A DNA stretch of 4,514 nucleotides from a virus (Duplodnaviria > Heunggongvirae > Uroviricota > Caudoviricetes): IMG/VR virus record IMGVR_UViG_2585427748_000002, one strand, 5' to 3'. A program made the position numbers and the translations under genes. Of the stretch, positions 1 through 4,514 are shown in pieces. The notes under the pieces are model-generated. The model saw only the letters and a program-made list of their open reading frames with translations. It ran no database searches and was not told the DNA's origin. Positions within the stretch are counted from its first letter, which is position 1. The number at the start of each line of letters is the position of its first letter.

Positions 1-166
1 GCTCTGTCGCTTCACTCAGTGCCATCAATGATGCTGCCGTCATTGGCACATCATTATTATCAGCATCCGTCCGGAAAAATTTCTCTGGCAACTTAAAACA
101 ATATCCTATATATCCGGCGTCTCCGGTATGTAGAACGTGAAGTTTTTAAAATTATTCATTTACCAT

Positions 167-679
167 TTAACTAATTTTTAGATCCTGGGGTACTCCCGTC
201 TTTTTCATTGCCTCCACGAAAGCGGAACTAACAGAACCTGACCAGTAATACTGGAACCCACTAACAACGCCCTGATAAATCATGGTTTGTGTAGCACCAC
301 CTACGTTTACGGTGATGTTACCTGCTTTACCACCGGCTAAATAAACAGCAGCTGTCGGTGTAGAGTTCGTCAAAAAGTGAGAAAGTGTAACGACAGCCCC
401 TACCAGCCTCCCTGATCCGCAGCTTGCGGCGTTTGTAATTGTACCTTTACTTTTTTCTTCTAAAGGCCAGTCAGCGCCAACTGCGCCCCAGTTATCAACC
501 TTGTCAGAGTATTTCCATTTATAGTACTCAGTTGCAATTTTACAGCCCATAGTTCGCCCAACCATTTGGCTCATCATAAAAGGTTTACTCAGTCCCAGTT
601 TGGTTCCGGCGGCTCCCATCCACTGCTCACCTGTTTCGCTCTTAGCCGAAGAGCCTACCCATCCCGATGTTACCCCCAT
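167..679 (-). CDS. Hypothetical protein of about 170 aa, Gly/Trp/Tyr-rich, no recognisable family; accessory gene downstream of stf in the position lambda uses for tfa
   Basis: The ORF track gives 167-724 with a TTG start, but the first ATG (679-677) is preceded by a strong Shine-Dalgarno GGGGGAG with a 5-nt spacer, so I place the start there. An in-frame stop at 749-751 prevents upstream extension. Stop TAA at 169-167. No signal peptide or transmembrane segment is visible, and there is no resemblance to lambda Tfa. GC content appears somewhat lower than in stf. Confidence 0.6.
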   Translation of the reverse strand: MGVTSGWVGSSAKSETGEQWMGAAGTKLGLSKPFMMSQMVGRTMGCKIATEYYKWKYSDKVDNWGAVGADWPLEEKSKGTITNAASCGSGRLVGAVVTLSHFLTNSTPTAAVYLAGGKAGNITVNVGGATQTMIYQGVVSGFQYYWSGSVSSAFVEAMKKTGVPQDLKIS

Positions 680-764: not shown

Positions 765-2324
765 TTACTTCTCCCGGAGTTCTTTAATCTCATGACGAAG
801 TGTTTTAAAGCCCTCGACTAACAATGCAATTATGCCGTTGTAGTTAAGACGCAGACGTTTTTCACCAGATATAACGTCTGCGTCTTCAGTTACCAGTTCA
901 GGCAATGCTTTTTGTGCATCCTGAGCAATTAAACCAACCGACGTTTGCCAACCGTCGGCAGAGTACTGTATCTCGTAAAGATAACCAGTAAGTGCCTCCA
1001 GACGATCTAACGCATTATCCAGTTTTACCAGATTTCGCTTGTTGCGTTTATCCGAACGGATCTGAATATCGTTAAATGAGCCGTTTCCGGTCACCGTCAA
1101 ATTGCCATTAATACCACCATTAAAAGTTTGTGCCTGAGTCCATGTATTGGCAGTAGTAAGCAGTTCTGTTCCTTGCCCGGGGGCTCCTGTGTCTCCCTTC
1201 GGTCCCTGTGGCCCCGCCGGACCTGCTGGACCTGCTACTCCCGGATCACCTTTATCGCCTTTCGGCCCCGGCGCCCCTGCCGGACCTGCTGGTCCAGCCA
1301 CTCCCGGATCGCCTTTGTCACCTTTTGGCCCCTGTGCGCCTGCCGGGCCTGCAGCTCCCGTATCTCCCTTTGCCCCCTGTGGACCTGCATTTCCCGTCAG
1401 ACCGGTCTCTCCCCTGTCGCCTTTCGGCCCCTGCGGGCCTGCCGGACCAGCATCACCTGCCGGCCCCCGTTCACCGGTTGCCCCTGCCGGGCCGGTGTCG
1501 CCACGCTCTCCTTTATCTCCCTTCGGCCCCTGAGGACCCGCGGGCCCCGGTTCCCCCTTTGGCCCGGGAGGTCCCACCACGGTGGGGATTCGGTTTACGG
1601 CCTCTTCCGCCGCTATCCTGCTTTGTTCCGCTGACTGTGCGCTTTCTGCTGACTCCCGGGCTTTTTCTGTTGCGGTCGTTGCATCCCTGACTGCATTACC
1701 GGCTGCACTTTCTGCCGTCTTTTTTGACAACTCAGCATCTGTTGCACTTTGTAATGACTCACTGGCTTTTTGAGCGGCCGCAGAGGCCGAGGACGAGGAC
1801 GCCTCCTCTGACTGCTTTGCTGAGGCTGCACTTTCTGCCGCCTGCCGGGCTGACTCCGATGCATCCCCTGCTGAAGTGTCAGCATTTGCAGCGCTCTCTT
1901 CTGCCTGACTGGCTGATATGCCGGCATTCCTCGCTGACGTCTCCGCCTCTCCGGCATTCTTCTTCGCCTCCTCTGCGTTACGCACCACCTCTTCCACCAT
2001 CAGTTCAAAGCGACGCAGTGCCTCCGGACGGGCATCATCCTCCGTCATGGCACCGAGAAAATCATTCAGCGTACCGGGTTGAGAATCTTCATACACGGTG
2101 ATGGTCCCGGCATGTGACGGCGGGAACCCTTCCACCAACAGAATAACGCTGTACTGACCGTACTCAACGTCCATGCTGTAACGCCCGGCTTCATCCGGAT
2201 TTTCTGAGGCCAGCGTGTTCACCACCACCGTGGTGCTGTTACGTTTTGCTTTCAGCTGGATTGTGCAGTTCTGTACCGGTTTTCCTGTGCCGTCTTTCAG
2301 TACACCTGAAATCTTTACTGCCAT
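765..2324 (-). CDS. stf: Side tail fibre protein (lambda Stf-like N-terminal tail-attachment domain, Ala/Ser/Glu-rich linker, collagen-like Gly-X-Y tract, C-terminal intramolecular chaperone / peptidase S74-type auto-cleaving domain)
   Basis: The translation from the ATG at 2324 begins [36 protein letters not shown], matching recalled lambda Stf (orf-401). The ORF-track start at 2330 is a GTG two codons upstream; GGGGTG lies a few nt before the ATG. Track residues about 118-247 are an A/S/E-rich low-complexity region, and about 253-386 are roughly 44 Gly-X-Y triplets ([26 protein letters not shown]...). The C-terminus carries the motif [31 protein letters not shown], which fits the S-D-x-R-x-K auto-proteolysis signature of tail fibre and endosialidase intramolecular chaperone domains. 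Stop TAA at 767-765. Confidence 0.9.
1173..1574 (-). repeat. Collagen-like Gly-X-Y coding repeat tract inside stf, including an imperfect 63-bp tandem duplication at about 1206-1331
   Basis: Seen in sequence: GC-rich triplet periodicity encoding GPxGxxG repeats. The protein segments [21 protein letters not shown] and [21 protein letters not shown] are adjacent 21-aa units, with DNA copies at about 1269-1331 and 1206-1268 that are similar but not identical. The lack of stops here in several frames on both strands explains the stacked ORF-track hits. Confidence 0.75.
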
Positions 2325-2335
2325 ATTCACCCCAC

Positions 2336-2362
2336 AAAAAAGCCCGCCTGAACCGGCGGGCT
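2336..2362 (-). terminator. Rho-independent terminator candidate immediately downstream of lom
   Basis: Seen in sequence: 8-bp GC-rich stem agcccgcc (2341-2348) pairing with ggcgggct (2355-2362), 6-nt loop, followed on the minus strand by a T run (plus-strand A at 2336-2340). It sits 27 bp after the lom stop and just upstream of the stf start. Confidence 0.65.
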
Positions 2363-2388
2363 GTTATAACACTGTGTTACCTGGCTAA

Positions 2389-2988
2389 TCAGAACTTATA
2401 ACCGACACCCACGATGAAACCGTCAGTGCGCCAGTCGCCACTGCCGGAACCTTCATAAGCAAGGTCAATGGTCACGGATTCGGTCGGGTTAAACTGCACG
2501 CCAGCCCCCCACGCCAGAGACGTGTTGCTGTGGCGACCGTCATCACTTCCGGTCAGCACATCGTGCGTTTTCCCCTTGTTGTCAGTTACGCGGAGATAAT
2601 CCCCGGAGAAAGTCGACACACGGCTGTAAGCCACACCCACCATCGCATACGCGCTGAACCATTCATTCACGCGTACAGACGGCCCCACCATCACGCTGAA
2701 CCAGCGGTTACGCACGGAATCTTCATGCCAGCGGGTATCGCTGTAGTGCGTTTTTTGCTCATCCTCAGCATTGGCATAACTGAAGGACGTAATCAGCCCC
2801 AGCGCGTCCGTAAACTCATAACGGTATTTCACGTTAATCCCGTTCAGATTATCGCTGCCGGGAACGTTCGTCGAGGCATGGAGATACCCCGCGCTCAGCG
2901 TGGACTGATGTTCTGCTGCACTCGCTGGCGTAGCAGCGGCGACCTGCCAGACTACTGCGGACAAAATAACAGCACAAACTTTACGCAT
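2389..2988 (-). CDS. lom: Lom outer membrane protein (Ail/Lom/PagC/Rck family 8-strand beta-barrel); lysogenic-conversion-type cargo gene
   Basis: The 199-aa translation has an N-terminal signal peptide (MRKVCAVILSAVVWQVAAATPASA|AEHQ), the Lom-like stretch STLSAGYLHASTNVPGSDNLNGINVKYRYEFTD...RWHEDSVRNRWFSVMVGPSVRVNEWFSAYAM...GSGSGDWRTDGFIVGVGYKF, and a C-terminal aromatic F typical of outer membrane beta-barrels. SD-like GAGG sits 6 nt upstream of the ATG. The gene lies between J-like sequence and stf, as in lambda. Confidence 0.93.
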   Translation of the reverse strand: MRKVCAVILSAVVWQVAAATPASAAEHQSTLSAGYLHASTNVPGSDNLNGINVKYRYEFTDALGLITSFSYANAEDEQKTHYSDTRWHEDSVRNRWFSVMVGPSVRVNEWFSAYAMVGVAYSRVSTFSGDYLRVTDNKGKTHDVLTGSDDGRHSNTSLAWGAGVQFNPTESVTIDLAYEGSGSGDWRTDGFIVGVGYKF

Positions 2989-3012
2989 AATTACCTCTCG
3001 CTTTTCTGCAAT

Positions 3013-3036
3013 AAAAAAGGCGCCATTTCTGGCGCC
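3013..3036 (-). terminator. Rho-independent terminator candidate downstream of the Nu1::J ORF (tJ-like)
   Basis: Seen in sequence: the palindrome ggcgcc (3019-3024), a 6-nt loop, then ggcgcc (3031-3036) forms a GC stem, followed on the minus strand by a run of six T (plus-strand A at 3013-3018). It lies between the ORF stop (3056) and the lom start (2988). Confidence 0.6.
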
Positions 3037-3055
3037 CGTATATGGGTTATAAAAT

Positions 3056-4219
3056 TCAGCTGATACTGATGCCTGCGGTGGCTTTCTTCATCACCACAAC
3101 CAGCAAATCGCTGATACTTGCTGTGGGATACCAGTTATTCACCAGCCATGCTGATACCGAAAACTCCAGCGTCATGTGACCGTGACCGGCAGGCATATCA
3201 ATAACGCCACTGTAAATCAGCGTATTATCCAGCGCGGTACGGTTATAAATTTCAGCACCGTTTTTCCGCACTATCAGACGGCATGAGGAGTAAATATCAG
3301 TATGCTCTCTCTCATGCTTAGCGCCGCTGAATGCCACCGCCGGAATAACAATTTGCCGGTCAAAAGGCTGATCGTCATAAATCCTGACGGTAACGGTCCC
3401 TGATGGCCACCGCTCCGGTGCCCGGGAGTCCCGCGGAAAAGCCTTACCCACTGTTTTAACGAGATCGCCTTCAATCTGGTTCGCGGACAGTTTTCCCAGA
3501 ACCCGACAGTTCTCGTTAATCGTGACGTTGTTGAGCGTCCCGGAATTCGCATTCACGTTACCGCTGATATCAGCATTTCTTGCGGTCAGCCTGCCCTCCG
3601 GCGTCAGGGAAAACGTCGGGGGATTGCCGGACGAGGTGATACTCACCGCAAACAGCCGCTTCAGGAACACATCGTTCATGAACAACTGATTCCCCTGCGC
3701 CACAAATAACGGCGTGGTGTTGCCGTCCTCCGGGTTAATCATCGCAATACGGTCAGCCAGCAGCAGTATGTTGCTCAGGGGCTGGCCATCAGTATCCTCA
3801 AAACGCCGCTGCACCGACAGGGGGATCCCGTCGAGAATACTGGCAATTTCACCTGCGATCCGCGACAGCACGAAAGTACAGAATGCGGTTTCCACCACTT
3901 CAGCTGAGTCTCTGGCATTCTTCAGTTCCTGTGCGTCGGCCTGCGCACGCGTAAGTCGATGGCGTTCGTACTCAATAGTCCCTGGCTGGAGATCTGTCTC
4001 GCTGGCCTGCCGCAGTTCTTCAACTTCCCGGCGCAGCTTTTCGTTCTCAATTTCAGCATCCCTTTCGGCATACCATTTTATGACGGCGGCAGAATCATAA
4101 AGCACCTCATTACCCTTGCCACCGCCTCGCAGAACGGGCATTCCCTGTTCCTGCCAGTTCTGAATGGTACGGATACTCGCACCGAAAATGTCAGCCAGCT
4201 GCTTTTTGTTGACTTCCAT
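3056..4219 (-). CDS. Chimeric ORF: terminase small subunit Nu1 N-terminal 140 aa (winged-HTH DNA-binding and self-association region) fused in frame to a ~247-aa J-like host-specificity C-terminal receptor-binding domain; probable deletion remnant
   Basis: Translation starts [39 protein letters not shown] and stays Nu1-like through ...[13 protein letters not shown] (codon 140, plus-strand 3800-3802), matching recalled lambda Nu1. After that it diverges from Nu1 (lambda continues PELENRHVDF) into [27 protein letters not shown]...[34 protein letters not shown]. That tail ends 67 bp upstream of lom with a terminator in between, which is where the 3-prime end of J sits in lambda. ATG at 4219-4217, stop TGA at 3058-3056. 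Assignment of the C-terminal part to J rests on position and recalled similarity, not a search. Confidence 0.8.
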
Positions 4220-4240
4220 TGTTCATTCCACGGACAAAAA

Positions 4241-4408
4241 CAGAGAAAGGAAACGACAAAGGCCAAAAAGCCCGCTTTCAGCACCTGTCGTTTCCTTTCT
4301 TTTCAGGGGGTATTTTAAATAAAAACATTAAGTTACGACGAAGAAGAACGGAAACACCTTAAACCGGAAAATTTTCATAAATAGCGAAAACCCGCGAGGT
4401 CGCCGCCC
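4241..4408 (-). promoter_or_regulatory. cos: lambda-type cos site: cosN cohesive-end sequence plus cosB (Nu1-binding R1, R2, R3 elements and an AT-rich IHF-type site)
   Basis: Seen in sequence: plus-strand 4397-4408 aggtcgccgccc is the reverse complement of GGGCGGCGACCT, the lambda 12-nt cohesive end. Three copies of the cgtttcc(t/g)ttct motif lie at about 4244-4255 (R1, reverse orientation on plus strand), 4289-4306 (R2) and 4340-4355 (R3), with an AT-rich stretch at 4307-4335 between R2 and R3. Spacing from cosN to the Nu1 ATG at 4219 is about 190 bp, as in lambda. Positions 4409-4514 match the recalled non-coding right end of lambda (the cosQ side). Recognition is from memory of the lambda sequence. 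Confidence 0.85.
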
Positions 4409-4514
4409 CGTAACCTGTCGGATCACCGGAAAGGACCCGTAAAGTGATAATGATTATCATCTACATATCACAACGTGCGTGGAGGCCATCAAACCACGTC
4501 AAATAATCAATTAT

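Follow-up and report, generated by a model that had tools for sequence, protein, structure and literature searches.

A lambdoid prophage remnant with an EPclD-class collagen-containing side tail fibre and a probable Gp38-type adhesin partner

Results

Genes and signals in the window

By the window we mean the whole 4,514-bp stretch of DNA analysed here, which is one entire contig. The J remnant, lom and a side tail fibre gene follow one another on a single strand in the order J'–lom–fibre, as they do for lambda Stf-type fibres, and a small adhesin gene lies beyond the fibre. The genes and signals are as follows.

1–94, minus strand: beginning of a truncated remnant of a DUF4376-domain gene, which continues beyond the end of the contig (by correspondence with the annotated pseudogene at 11879–12094 of L001)
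167–679, minus strand: Gp38-type tail fibre adhesin gene, 170 aa (Pfam Gp38_N, phrog_1121 and 6F45_D)
679, minus strand: ATG of the adhesin gene, preceded by AAGGGGGAG (upstream sequence)
765–2324, minus strand: side tail fibre gene of the EPclD class, 519 aa (ORF list, Pfam and the lengths in Table 3 of Ghosh et al. 2012)
2341–2362, minus strand: strong intrinsic-terminator-like hairpin and T-run in the interval between lom and the fibre start (8-bp stem with 7 G-C pairs, TTTTTTG tail)
2389–2988, minus strand: lom, an Ail/Lom outer-membrane beta-barrel gene, 199 aa (Pfam Ail_Lom, E = 5e-124)
3018–3037, minus strand: hairpin resembling a terminator, in the interval from the J remnant to lom (scan)
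3056–4219, minus strand: in-frame fusion ORF, 387 aa, joining Nu1 residues 1–~139 to J residues ~910–1157 (Pfam and alignments to the parents)
about 3800–3802, minus strand: Nu1::J junction (alignment to the parents)
4397–4408, minus strand: exact match (pattern search, 0 mismatches) to the 12-nt GGGCGGCGACCT, which we take to be the cohesive end (cosN) of lambda, 178 nt upstream of the Nu1 start

Scanning the window against Rfam and for tRNAs gave no hits. Of 5,426 genomes, 5,212 contain DNA that matches the window, at a median of 4 places each. The homologue searches gave almost only near-identical fragments from E. coli, Shigella and Salmonella, and deep conservation was therefore assessed by tblastn against phage genomes together with alignments to PDB and Pfam entries.

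Domain architecture of the side tail fibre

A preliminary description of this DNA had read 765–2324 as the gene of a side tail fibre that combines a collagen tract with a C-terminal chaperone, and the ORF does lie there, on the minus strand, with three Pfam domains. Its parts are as follows.

765–767, minus strand: stop codon; the ATG start is at 2324, with an alternative in-frame GTG at 2330
1926–2324, minus strand: N-terminal anchor PfN/phage_tail_N (collar domain), residues 1–133 (Pfam)
1584–1925, minus strand: Ala/Ser/Glu-rich low-complexity segment (PCoil), residues 134–247, a predicted trimeric coiled coil (composition)
1170–1574, minus strand: collagen-like tract, residues 251–385, with 45 uninterrupted Gly-X-Y triplets (regex count and Pfam Collagen)
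1211–1352, no strand: 63-bp (7-triplet) tandem repeat, 2.3 copies, within the collagen tract (Tandem Repeats Finder)
1056–1169, minus strand: fibre tip, residues 386–423 (38 aa), the predicted adhesin docking face after cleavage (6F45_A alignment)
768–1055, minus strand: Peptidase_S74 intramolecular chaperone, residues 424–519 (Pfam PF13884, alignments to 6F45_A and MyRF)
1053–1055 and 1038–1040, minus strand: codons of Ser424 and Lys429, with the predicted scissile bond between R423 and S424

Peptidase_S74 and collagen were the domains that the earlier description had expected a search to find, and both matched; together with phage_tail_N, all three exceed the curated Pfam cut-offs. The phage_tail_N match (PF08400, E = 1e-68) covers 1–133 of the 134 profile positions, which upholds the Stf-like N-terminal region noticed before but extends it from ~115 to 133 residues, and residues 1–94 are about 94% identical to the solved collar domain of Ur-lambda Stf (PDB 9E7M/9MGH). 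The linker that follows had been read as rich in Ala, Ser and Glu, and these account for 35, 23 and 15 of its 114 residues. The homologous PfN-PCoil fragment of EPclA is alpha-helical and trimeric (PMC3368898). The collagen tract (Pfam Collagen, E = 4e-21), previously counted at ~44 triplets, would measure about 39 nm if triple-helical, and the tandem repeat within it has 85% matches and a score of 200. That 45 perfect triplets should coincide with three domain matches above curated thresholds is far beyond chance. Judged by its sequence, the protein belongs with the lambda-type side tail fibres and joins a predicted coiled-coil linker to a collagen tract and, at the C-terminus, an S74 chaperone bearing a Ser-Lys dyad.

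This architecture is not new, as the EPclD class was already catalogued by Ghosh et al. 2012 (PMC3368898; e.g., ECoL_05072 and SDB_03138), with the same 519 aa, a PfN, a PCoil of 116, one Col of 135 and a non-PfC C-terminus. We find no structural difference from that class; what is added here is the identification of the C-terminus as a tip plus Peptidase_S74 and its tie to the downstream adhesin. Ghosh et al. left this end, termed PfC2, uncharacterised, their experiments having concerned EPclA and EPclB, which have a different C-terminus (PMC3368898). The fibre likewise gave no Pfam match to the PfC domain (PF06820). Our literature search found no experiment on this fibre or on any EPclD member, and the phi24B and Sp5 literature was set aside as a match, since it concerns another fibre type (EPclB, with a PfC end).

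The fibre of Ur-lambda offers the closest comparison for the anchor, the stf gene there likewise following J and lom. The distal half of Ur-lambda Stf is gp37(T4)-like, whereas that of the window is made of collagen, S74 and a Gp38-type adhesin. Folding of lambda Stf depends on a separate Tfa chaperone. No Tfa-type assembly chaperone gene follows the fibre in the window, where the next gene matches only Gp38_N in Pfam and what lies beyond it is the DUF4376 remnant. The distal half of Ur-lambda Stf is reported to bind OmpC (PMC12617516).

Prophage proteins with collagen-like sequences are over-represented in pathogenic E. coli (PMC3368898), and the collagen tract shows a weak, sub-threshold similarity to the streptococcal Scl and Legionella Lcl adhesins, so that one might suppose that the bacterium has taken over the fibre as a collagen-like adhesin of its own surface, or as a virulence factor, acting independently of any phage particle. 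We regard this as extremely unlikely. The Scl and Lcl NCBIfam matches reach 74–108 bits against cut-offs of 325–500 and fall in the repeat region only, the N-terminus is without a signal-peptide-like hydrophobic stretch, and every fibre domain other than the collagen is a phage fibre domain. Moreover, the same protein is found in prophages with complete tail modules and in Stx phages.

The S74 chaperone and its predicted cleavage site

The match to Peptidase_S74, a family of intramolecular chaperones of the endosialidase, T5 pb1 and S16 gp37 type (PF13884, residues 424–479), spans all of the profile (positions 1–58 of 58) and scores 46.4 bits against a cut-off of 22 (E = 5e-12). When the tip and chaperone are taken together as a 134-aa query, the sole strong PDB match is S16 gp37 (6F45_A, E = 1.3e-13, query residues 20–133), with the tip aligning to the end of mature gp37; the segment also matches phrog_1699, 5667 and 19966, which are C-termini of "long tail fiber distal subunit" proteins. 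The motif S424-D-K-R-N-K429, rightly singled out in the preliminary description as the S-D-x-R-x-K of a self-cleaving chaperone, puts its dyad in register with SSDRRIK of S16 gp37 and with (S587A)/K592 of MyRF, and it is conserved among the relatives of the fibre. A monomer AlphaFold2 model of the tip and chaperone, built from an 8-sequence alignment, had a pLDDT of only 48.6 and was discarded with no fold search made on it; the S74 fold is thus assigned from sequence similarity.

The homologues also indicate where the chain would be cut. According to PMC7917993, the last 113 aa of S16 gp37 autocleave at DLNVS^SDRRIKK, exposing the docking surface for gp38, and the correspondence of the pre-cut ends DLNVS, DVYIR and DIQIR is taken from that same paper; our alignment puts the cut region of the fibre in register with the S16 site. 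MyRF is cleaved at P586^S587, as demonstrated by mass spectrometry and mutagenesis, and its S587 and K592 are equivalent to S911 and K916 of endoNF, with roles assigned to each member of the dyad (PMC8326128). Because S16 gp37 and MyRF are both cut before the catalytic Ser, we place the predicted cut of the fibre at R423^S424 by alignment. A cut after the Ser of RSDK, as first proposed, is off by one residue, and the fragment freed, put at about 95 residues, would come to 96. The calculated masses are 52.7 kDa for the full chain, 41.8 kDa for the mature chain and 10.9 kDa for the chaperone.

A Gp38-type adhesin gene downstream of the fibre

The preliminary description took the fibre for the whole receptor-binding unit and overlooked the gene that begins after an intergenic gap of 85 nt. 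This gene, which has a good ribosome-binding site in its upstream sequence, encodes a 17.8-kDa protein with a Gp38_N domain (PF21721, E = 9e-20) and is spanned over its full length by phrog_1121, "tail fiber adhesin". The N-terminus matches S16 gp38 (chain 6F45_D), and the layout comprises an N-terminal attachment plug (about residues 1–44) followed by a specificity body for which a predicted model suggests a beta-sandwich. The plug is conserved among relatives, with W7 and W20 present and invariant; the third Trp prong of S16 gp38 (PFWIS) is Met (PFMMS) in this adhesin and in all of its close relatives. These matches place the protein in the T2/S16-type Gp38_N family rather than in the T4/lambda Tfa chaperone family. 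Since it is homologous to the adhesins of S16, T2 and related phages, it would act as a receptor-binding cap that docks on the face exposed by release of the S74 domain.

The pairing of fibre and adhesin has clear parallels. The gp37-gp38 pair at the long-tail-fibre tip of Salmonella phage S16 (PDB 6F45; Dunne et al. 2018) and gp37/gp38 of T2 and T6 share the S74 end with its ...[SR]^SD-x-R-x-K cut site, and in these phages, as in the window, the very next gene encodes a small monomeric adhesin that bears a Gp38_N plug; each of the two window proteins matches its S16 counterpart in 6F45. The g37-g38 pair of Kosakonia phage 305 (Tevenvirinae) is 41% and 38% identical to the fibre and adhesin, respectively, in the same gene order, the latter figure being a full-length comparison with the gene-38-position adhesin, and the order of fibre then adhesin recurs in P13803. 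In contrast to the myovirus gp34–37 fibre of S16, however, the shaft here consists of collagen and coiled coil on a siphovirus Stf anchor, and the tip, at 38 aa, is much shorter than the beta-helical domains of S16 gp37. Because the tip is so short after the collagen, the docking geometry could differ from that of S16.

The body of the adhesin differs from S16 gp38 as well. At 170 aa in all, the protein has a beta-sandwich body in the predicted model in place of the polyglycine (PGII) sandwich with its glycine-rich motifs, which is absent. Our searches found no solved structural relative of this body, and in sequence it gave weak matches to a few straboviruses (39–40% identity, E = 2e-5 to 1e-3). 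In layout it resembles the short gp38 adhesin of the RB43 type (Trojet et al. 2011, PMC3157838), which is also about 170 aa long and joins a T6-like attachment domain of ~50 aa to an unrelated specificity domain of ~120 aa without glycine-rich motifs. The likeness is one of layout only, as RB43 itself was not among the matches to the body. Host-range mutations of RB43 map to the specificity domain of its adhesin (PMC3157838).

A different reading would keep the S74 domain uncleaved as a C-terminal trimerisation knob, with the Gp38-like protein either helping in assembly only or having no interaction with the fibre. The unrelated PfC of EPclA does act as a retained trimerisation module (Ghosh 2012, PMC3368898) and the gp38 protein of T4 works as a chaperone, not as an adhesin (PMC6851490); in addition, the tip ahead of the cut is unusually short and one Trp prong of the adhesin is missing. 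Such a reading nonetheless seems quite improbable to us. The dyad agrees in register with MyRF and with S16 gp37, whose cleavage PMC7917993 cites, as do its S-x4-K spacing and the D-x-x-I-R/S-D motif around it, and the family to which the adhesin belongs is the T2/S16-type Gp38_N family, not that of the T4/lambda Tfa chaperones.

The same cassette in Stx2 phages

The fibre end and adhesin are also carried by complete and inducible phages. Oslovirus-type Stx2 phages (P13803 ORF65/66, P13374 of O104:H4, phi191, 75/02 Stx and Ss-VASD) encode a tail fibre and a "tail fibre adhesin" whose identity to the window proteins is about 98% over the final ~185 aa of the fibre and about 92% for the adhesin. 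The adhesin segment that differs from the allele of the O104:H4 phage comprises residues ~24–103. The shared DNA extends from ~120 nt beyond the end of the adhesin gene into the collagen tract. Upstream of that tract the two differ, the 695-aa fibre of the Stx2 phages having a podovirus-type N-terminal anchor and a longer collagen region. One and the same host-range cassette is joined, by way of the collagen repeat, to fibre bases of both the lambda type and the Stx-podovirus type, among the latter that of the Stx2a phage from the 2011 O104:H4 outbreak lineage. Cassette exchange is therefore evident, but the suggestion that the locus persists as a recombination reservoir describes, for the copy in the window, a possible consequence rather than a demonstrated function.

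Deletion of the head and tail genes

In the fusion ORF upstream of lom, Pfam recognises Phage_Nu1 (residues 1–143), Phage_Tail_Tip and Ig_GpJ_C, and the two parents share ~2 bp of microhomology at the junction. The earlier proposal that the tail genes had been deleted is supported by this Nu1::J fusion, which marks the loss of every head and tail gene from A through most of J, V and M among them. An identical fusion protein is encoded on 12 contigs, from at least five isolate assemblies and one metagenome, and the junction is absent from 5,426 complete genomes.

That absence, the length of the fusion-bearing contigs (all 2–5 kb, the window being one of them in its entirety) and the many near-identical lambdoid segments held by E. 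coli genomes might be taken to mean that the junction is a short-read assembly artefact and that the fibre comes from an intact prophage. We judge this highly improbable and reject it on the microhomology and the independent recurrence: about 2 bp is far under any assembler k-mer, and the identical junction was recovered independently in the assemblies counted above. The contig, moreover, continues unbroken for about 700 bp beyond the junction, and the fusion is a clean in-frame ORF. An analogous nohA-J'-stf' scar exists in the K-12-type Qin prophage, and such deletions are a known mode of decay. In this cryptic prophage (nohA, J fragment, stf fragment, tfaQ, pinQ), the morphogenetic genes are lost and the gene of the small terminase stands next to a piece of J; the nu1/cos segment of the window is 99.2% identical to the Qin nohA region. 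The two nevertheless differ, in that nohA is full length in Qin, whereas the break in the window falls at codon ~139, and Qin, unlike the window, has lost lom and most of stf and has a Tfa-type distal end.

Stf docks at the gpV/gpM junction of a lambda-type tail (PMC12617516). Both docking partners fall inside the deleted interval, from nu1 ~139 to J ~910, and are not encoded by the element that carries the fibre, so that the fibre is orphaned in cis. The earlier statement that the fibre has no virion to attach to holds to that extent; in trans, the anchor could plausibly fit the tails of co-resident lambdoid phages, because it is about 94% identical to that of Ur-lambda Stf. The same 519-aa ORF, with 2 aa differences, adjoins a complete tail gene set in NZ_CP042892 in the order J-lom-fibre, in a prophage whose portal gene is annotated as frameshifted. 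The annotation there (PGAP) splits the fibre gene as a "pseudogene", but its translation is an intact 519 aa, and we dismiss the split as an annotation artefact.

Copies that bear the deletion differ from one another at just 3 sites over 893–4219 (3.3 kb), two of the differences being silent and one a third-codon-position change. Given so few differences, the deletion is young, and the intactness of the fibre and adhesin needs no special explanation. Of the two reasons offered in the preliminary description for the persistence of the fibre, recent deletion is the one that these data favour. The cassette is being carried along in a prophage that decayed recently, and the decay is of an ordinary kind.

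Discussion

Considered together, the EPclD fibre and the Gp38-type adhesin probably form a two-protein receptor-binding tip in the style of T2 and S16, stranded by a recent deletion of head and tail genes. In the mechanism that we propose, three fibre chains would trimerise, with nucleation by the S74 chaperone and the coiled coil, and the ~39-nm collagen triple helix would then zip up. Once folding is complete, the Ser424/Lys429 dyad would cut between R423 and S424 and release the 96-aa chaperone, leaving a mature chain that ends in ...FNDIQIR. The flat trimeric end bared by the cut would be capped by one copy of the 17.8-kDa adhesin, attached through its conserved N-terminal plug (W7, W20, F34 and M36), and the variable beta-sandwich body would bind a cell-surface receptor. 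On a virion, the N-terminal domain of the fibre would make up the collar where gpV and gpM meet in a lambda-type tail. In this element the last step is ruled out in cis by the illegitimate deletion that joined nu1 in frame to J, at codons ~139 and ~910, respectively, and the cassette, presumably without a current function, would still be intact for want of time to decay.

Two readings would grant the cassette a present role. In the first, it is expressed from the late operon on induction, and the fibre and adhesin join the tails of co-resident or superinfecting lambdoid phages and alter their host range, by phenotypic mixing or fibre donation. The similarity of the anchor to Ur-lambda Stf speaks for this, as does the high conservation of PfN across E. 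coli prophages. In sister contigs, the DNA directly upstream contains lysis genes and cos, from where late transcription could reach the cassette, both ORFs are intact with a good ribosome-binding site before the adhesin, and a slightly different second copy of the fibre end is present in a different but related assembly (fragment P0034). Expression would nevertheless require Q antitermination, since lom, the gene just ahead of the fibre start, lies between strong terminators, and the intactness is fully explained by a young deletion; we consider use in trans unlikely. The second reading makes the element a satellite, packaged by the terminase of a helper lambdoid phage and supplying its own host-range module to the helper tails, thereby redirecting the particles. 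It was entertained because the element retains the cosN 12-mer match, the DNA-binding N-terminal part of Nu1, the upstream lysis genes and an intact fibre and adhesin, and we hold it to be very unlikely.

On the favoured account of a stranded two-protein tip, the case is well explained and ordinary: the type of cassette was already known, and its orphaning opens no new question. Its wider interest lies in the PfC2 end of EPclD fibres, which would correspond to an S74 chaperone that cleaves itself and has a separately encoded Gp38-type adhesin as its partner. Host-range studies of O104:H4-type Stx phages would do well to seek receptor specificity in the small adhesin and not in the fibre. In a lesser version of the satellite reading, the modelled beta-sandwich body of the adhesin, which is common to the O104:H4 Stx2a phage, may represent a new receptor-binding fold.

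Gene layout and expression context

The window spans all 4,514 bp of contig JORO01000079.1 from the draft E. coli assembly GCA_000713235.1, and every large ORF in it lies on the minus strand. The first five features below are given in transcription order, followed by a gene remnant 3' of the adhesin and two hairpins on either side of lom.

4397-4408, minus: 12-nt exact match to GGGCGGCGACCT (pattern search)
3056-4219, minus: Nu1::J fusion ORF, 387 aa
2389-2988, minus: lom
765-2324, minus: side tail fibre ORF, 519 aa
167-679, minus: adhesin ORF, 170 aa, ATG at 679
1-94, minus: remnant of a DUF4376-domain gene, N-terminus absent in the annotated relative
2341-2362, minus: terminator-like hairpin between lom and the fibre
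3018-3037, minus: terminator-like hairpin on the other side of lom

The lom gene is an insulated unit, bracketed by two strong terminator-like hairpins. One of these ends ~11 nt before the fibre ATG, so the fibre presumably needs late transcription antiterminated by Q to be expressed; the contig ends before any Q/pR' region. The DUF4376 remnant suggests an older fibre-accessory gene, replaced or decayed, downstream of the distal cassette formed by the fibre end and the adhesin.

The fibre is a member of a catalogued collagen-like class

A preliminary description made from the sequence had proposed an orphaned fibre with an Stf-type N-domain, a collagen tract and a self-cleaving chaperone. We confirm this observation, whereas its interpretation is partly supported. 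The 519-aa ORF is real, and Pfam places phage_tail_N at residues 1-133 (E 1e-68), Collagen in three stretches (E 4e-21) and Peptidase_S74 at residues 424-479 (score 46.4 bits, cut-off 22), all above curated cut-offs, as the description had expected of the last two. By direct inspection, an Ala/Ser/Glu-rich segment (residues 134-247; A35, S23 and E15 of 114) is followed by 45 Gly-X-Y triplets with no break (residues 251-385), a 38-aa tip (residues 386-423) and the motif S424-D-K-R-N-K429, whose Ser424 begins the final 96 residues. The proposed architecture therefore stands with adjusted figures (an N-domain of 133 rather than ~115 residues, 45 rather than ~44 triplets, a C-terminal piece of 96 rather than ~95 residues) and with the ORF placed on the minus strand.

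Collagen-like proteins of E. coli and Shigella prophages have been sorted into classes EPclA to EPclD (Ghosh et al. 2012, PMC3368898), and the window fibre is an EPclD protein. Members of that class listed in Table 3 of PMC3368898 (ECoL_05072 and SDB_03138) are exactly 519 aa, with a PCoil of 116 and a Col of 135; their C-terminus, unrelated to the PfC domain, was left uncharacterised there. EPclA has been shown experimentally to be a trimer, a ~60-nm dumbbell whose collagen domain is a triple helix, and its PfN-PCoil fragment to be alpha-helical and trimeric (PMC3368898). The C-terminal biology of this class can now be read by homology.

Inside the collagen tract lies a 63-bp (21-aa, 7-triplet) tandem repeat (1211-1352; 2.3 copies, 85% match). 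It is a likely source of the family's variation in Col length, consistent with the polymorphism noted by Ghosh et al. 2012 (PMC3368898). Four sister contigs (L002, L003, L005 and L007) stop inside the fibre gene, within window 893-1691 and flanking this repeat on both sides; the repeated sequence may be a place where assemblies break.

A predicted cleavage site and a Gp38-type adhesin

When the tip and S74 segment was compared with all PDB sequences, one strong match was found, S16 gp37 (6F45 chain A, E 1.3e-13). After trimerization, the last 113 residues of S16 gp37, the intramolecular chaperone, autocleave between two serines (DLNVS^SDRRIKK), baring the surface where gp38 docks via conserved tryptophans; the authors aligned DVYIR^SDGRLKI of other phages to this site (PMC7917993). 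The corresponding stretch of the window fibre aligns in the same register. For MyRF, mass spectrometry has located cleavage between P586 and S587, and S587/K592 are the counterparts of endoNF S911/K916 (PMC8326128). Cleavage had earlier been proposed after the serine; S16 and MyRF both place it before, so the predicted scissile bond is that between R423 and S424, with calculated products of 41.8 and 10.9 kDa.

The same description overlooked the adhesin gene, 85 nt 3' of the fibre, with AAGGGGGAG just upstream of its ATG at 679. Pfam assigns its product a Gp38_N attachment domain (PF21721, E 9e-20), and the whole protein aligns with PHROG 1121 ('tail fiber adhesin'); in the PDB-wide search, its residues 1-44 match S16 gp38 (6F45 chain D). 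Unlike S16 gp38, it is short (170 aa versus 249) and without glycine-rich motifs; of the tryptophan prongs, W7 and W20 are invariant, whereas the third is Met in the window adhesin and all close relatives. Its layout is that of the short RB43-type gp38, in which a T6-like ~50-aa plug is joined to an unrelated ~120-aa specificity domain to which host-range mutations map (Trojet et al. 2011, PMC3157838); a search with the adhesin body found no sequence match to RB43 itself.

The Tevenvirinae phage Kosakonia 305 has the gene order g35-g36-g37-adhesin-holin. The end of its gp37, where FNNVYIR-SD...K occurs, shares 41% identity with the last 110 residues of the fibre; the two adhesins share 38% along their full length. 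By these alignments, the fibre end and adhesin are homologous as a two-gene unit. Reading the pair by homology, we infer that the S74 domain would cleave itself off between R423 and S424, and that the fibre would next be capped by the Gp38-type adhesin, which would bind the receptor. The 85-nt gap contains a 9-bp G+C-rich hairpin (GTGGGGTGA-CAC-TCACCCCAC, 702-722), with no T-run on the coding strand.

Distribution of the distal cassette

The cassette is uncommon: among 5,426 complete E. coli genomes, 70 have it, and in 54 of these its coverage reaches 80% or more. The adhesin body is matched in 24 phage records: 17 are Stx phages at ~92% identity (e.g. P13374 from an O104:H4 strain, phi191, 75/02 Stx and Ss-VASD), one is an E. 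coli phage at 61%, and six are weak matches in a few straboviruses. In phage P13803, the last ~185 aa of the fibre (ORF65, 695 aa) are ~98% identical to the window fibre, whereas the N-terminal anchor differs; ORF66 is annotated as an adhesin. The DNA block in common runs from ~48 to ~1390, that is, from ~120 nt 3' of the adhesin stop into the collagen tract; identity is 95-100% across the tip and S74 and falls to 77-88% at ~371-610 (approximately adhesin residues 24-103). Because this shared block ends in the collagen tract, the collagen repeat is the joint linking one host-range cassette to different fibre bases.

A second allele of the collagen-tip-S74 end is present on a 437-bp contig (L011, JNNB01000053.1) of the related assembly GCA_000700505.1, named E. 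coli 2-011-08_S3_C1, with a P-to-S substitution in its collagen part and DVQIR in place of DIQIR at its tip. This allele hints at two cassette copies per strain in such strains.

The deletion scar

The 387-aa ORF combines Phage_Nu1 (residues 1-143) with the J domains Phage_Tail_Tip and Ig_GpJ_C (Pfam). Alignment with an intact J (L001, in NZ_CP042892) and with a nohA locus (L009) maps the break to ~3800-3802, where the reading frame passes from nu1 codon ~139 straight into J codon ~910 (of 1157). Everything between the nu1 end and most of J is absent from the element. The parents share ~2 bp at the break (J ...TCCTCAA / AAAACGCC... nu1). We ruled out an assembly artefact: an overlap of 2 bp is too short to mislead an assembler, and 12 contigs, drawn from one metagenome and at least five isolate assemblies, all encode this fusion protein without a single difference. 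None of the 5,426 complete E. coli genomes spans the junction. Upstream of the fusion, the deletion-bearing contigs carry Rz and a DUF3950 gene. K-12-type Qin prophages have an analogous yet different scar (nohA, a J fragment, an stf fragment and tfaQ), and their nohA region is 99.2% identical to the window nu1/cos segment.

In this ORF, the N-terminal DNA-binding part of Nu1 (residues 1-~139) is followed by the final ~248 residues of J, among them the C-terminal receptor-binding domain. The chimera is probably an accident, yet a translatable fusion of cos-binding and receptor-binding domains. GenBank entries for the identical protein read 'terminase small subunit' or 'DUF1983 domain-containing protein'. 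The GGGCGGCGACCT 12-mer, the sequence of lambda's cohesive end, is still present ahead of Nu1, 178 nt from its start.

Orphaning and age of the deletion

The fusion bears out, in cis, the proposal that the tail genes are gone and the fibre orphaned, as it shows loss from the end of nu1 into most of J. In the Ur-lambda cryo-EM structure, the gpV/gpM junction is ringed by a collar of twelve Stf N-domains (PMC12617516), and residues 1-94 of the window fibre are ~94% identical to the solved domain. Given the deletion, the element has therefore lost the fibre's docking partners gpV/gpM, beyond J alone.

Over 893-4219 (3.3 kb), only three sites distinguish the window from the other deletion-bearing contigs. 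Two fall in the fusion ORF and are silent, since all of these contigs encode the same fusion protein; the third, at 1275, affects a third codon position of the fibre gene. The non-coding stretch near cos accounts for almost all the divergence (8 to 29 differing positions over 4234-4500, including a 7-nt indel) and looks like a mosaic boundary. Judged by these sequences, the deletion allele is young and the prophage a recently decayed lambdoid, so the intactness of the fibre requires no selective explanation. Of the two explanations offered earlier, the recent deletion is the one that the three differences favour; a recombination reservoir agrees with cassette mobility in general, and nothing further supports that role.

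The claim that the fibre has no virion to attach to holds in cis. It cannot be asserted for the whole cell, since anchors of this kind are general among lambdoid tails, several such prophages are usual in an E. coli genome (a median of four places per genome match the window) and a variant copy of the fibre end exists in a related assembly.

In the closest tail-bearing relative, NZ_CP042892, all tail genes from the major tail subunit through J adjoin the fibre, and the portal gene is annotated as frameshifted. Its fibre is the same 519-aa ORF with two substitutions. RefSeq/PGAP splits this locus (L001 12765-14324; NZ_CP042892.1 1688718-1690277) into a truncated pseudogene and a 109-aa 'tail fiber domain-containing protein'. 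The pseudogene call is an annotation artefact, as translation gives a single uninterrupted ORF; it is apparently the collagen tract that defeats gene calling. Similar fragments make up many database entries of this fibre family.
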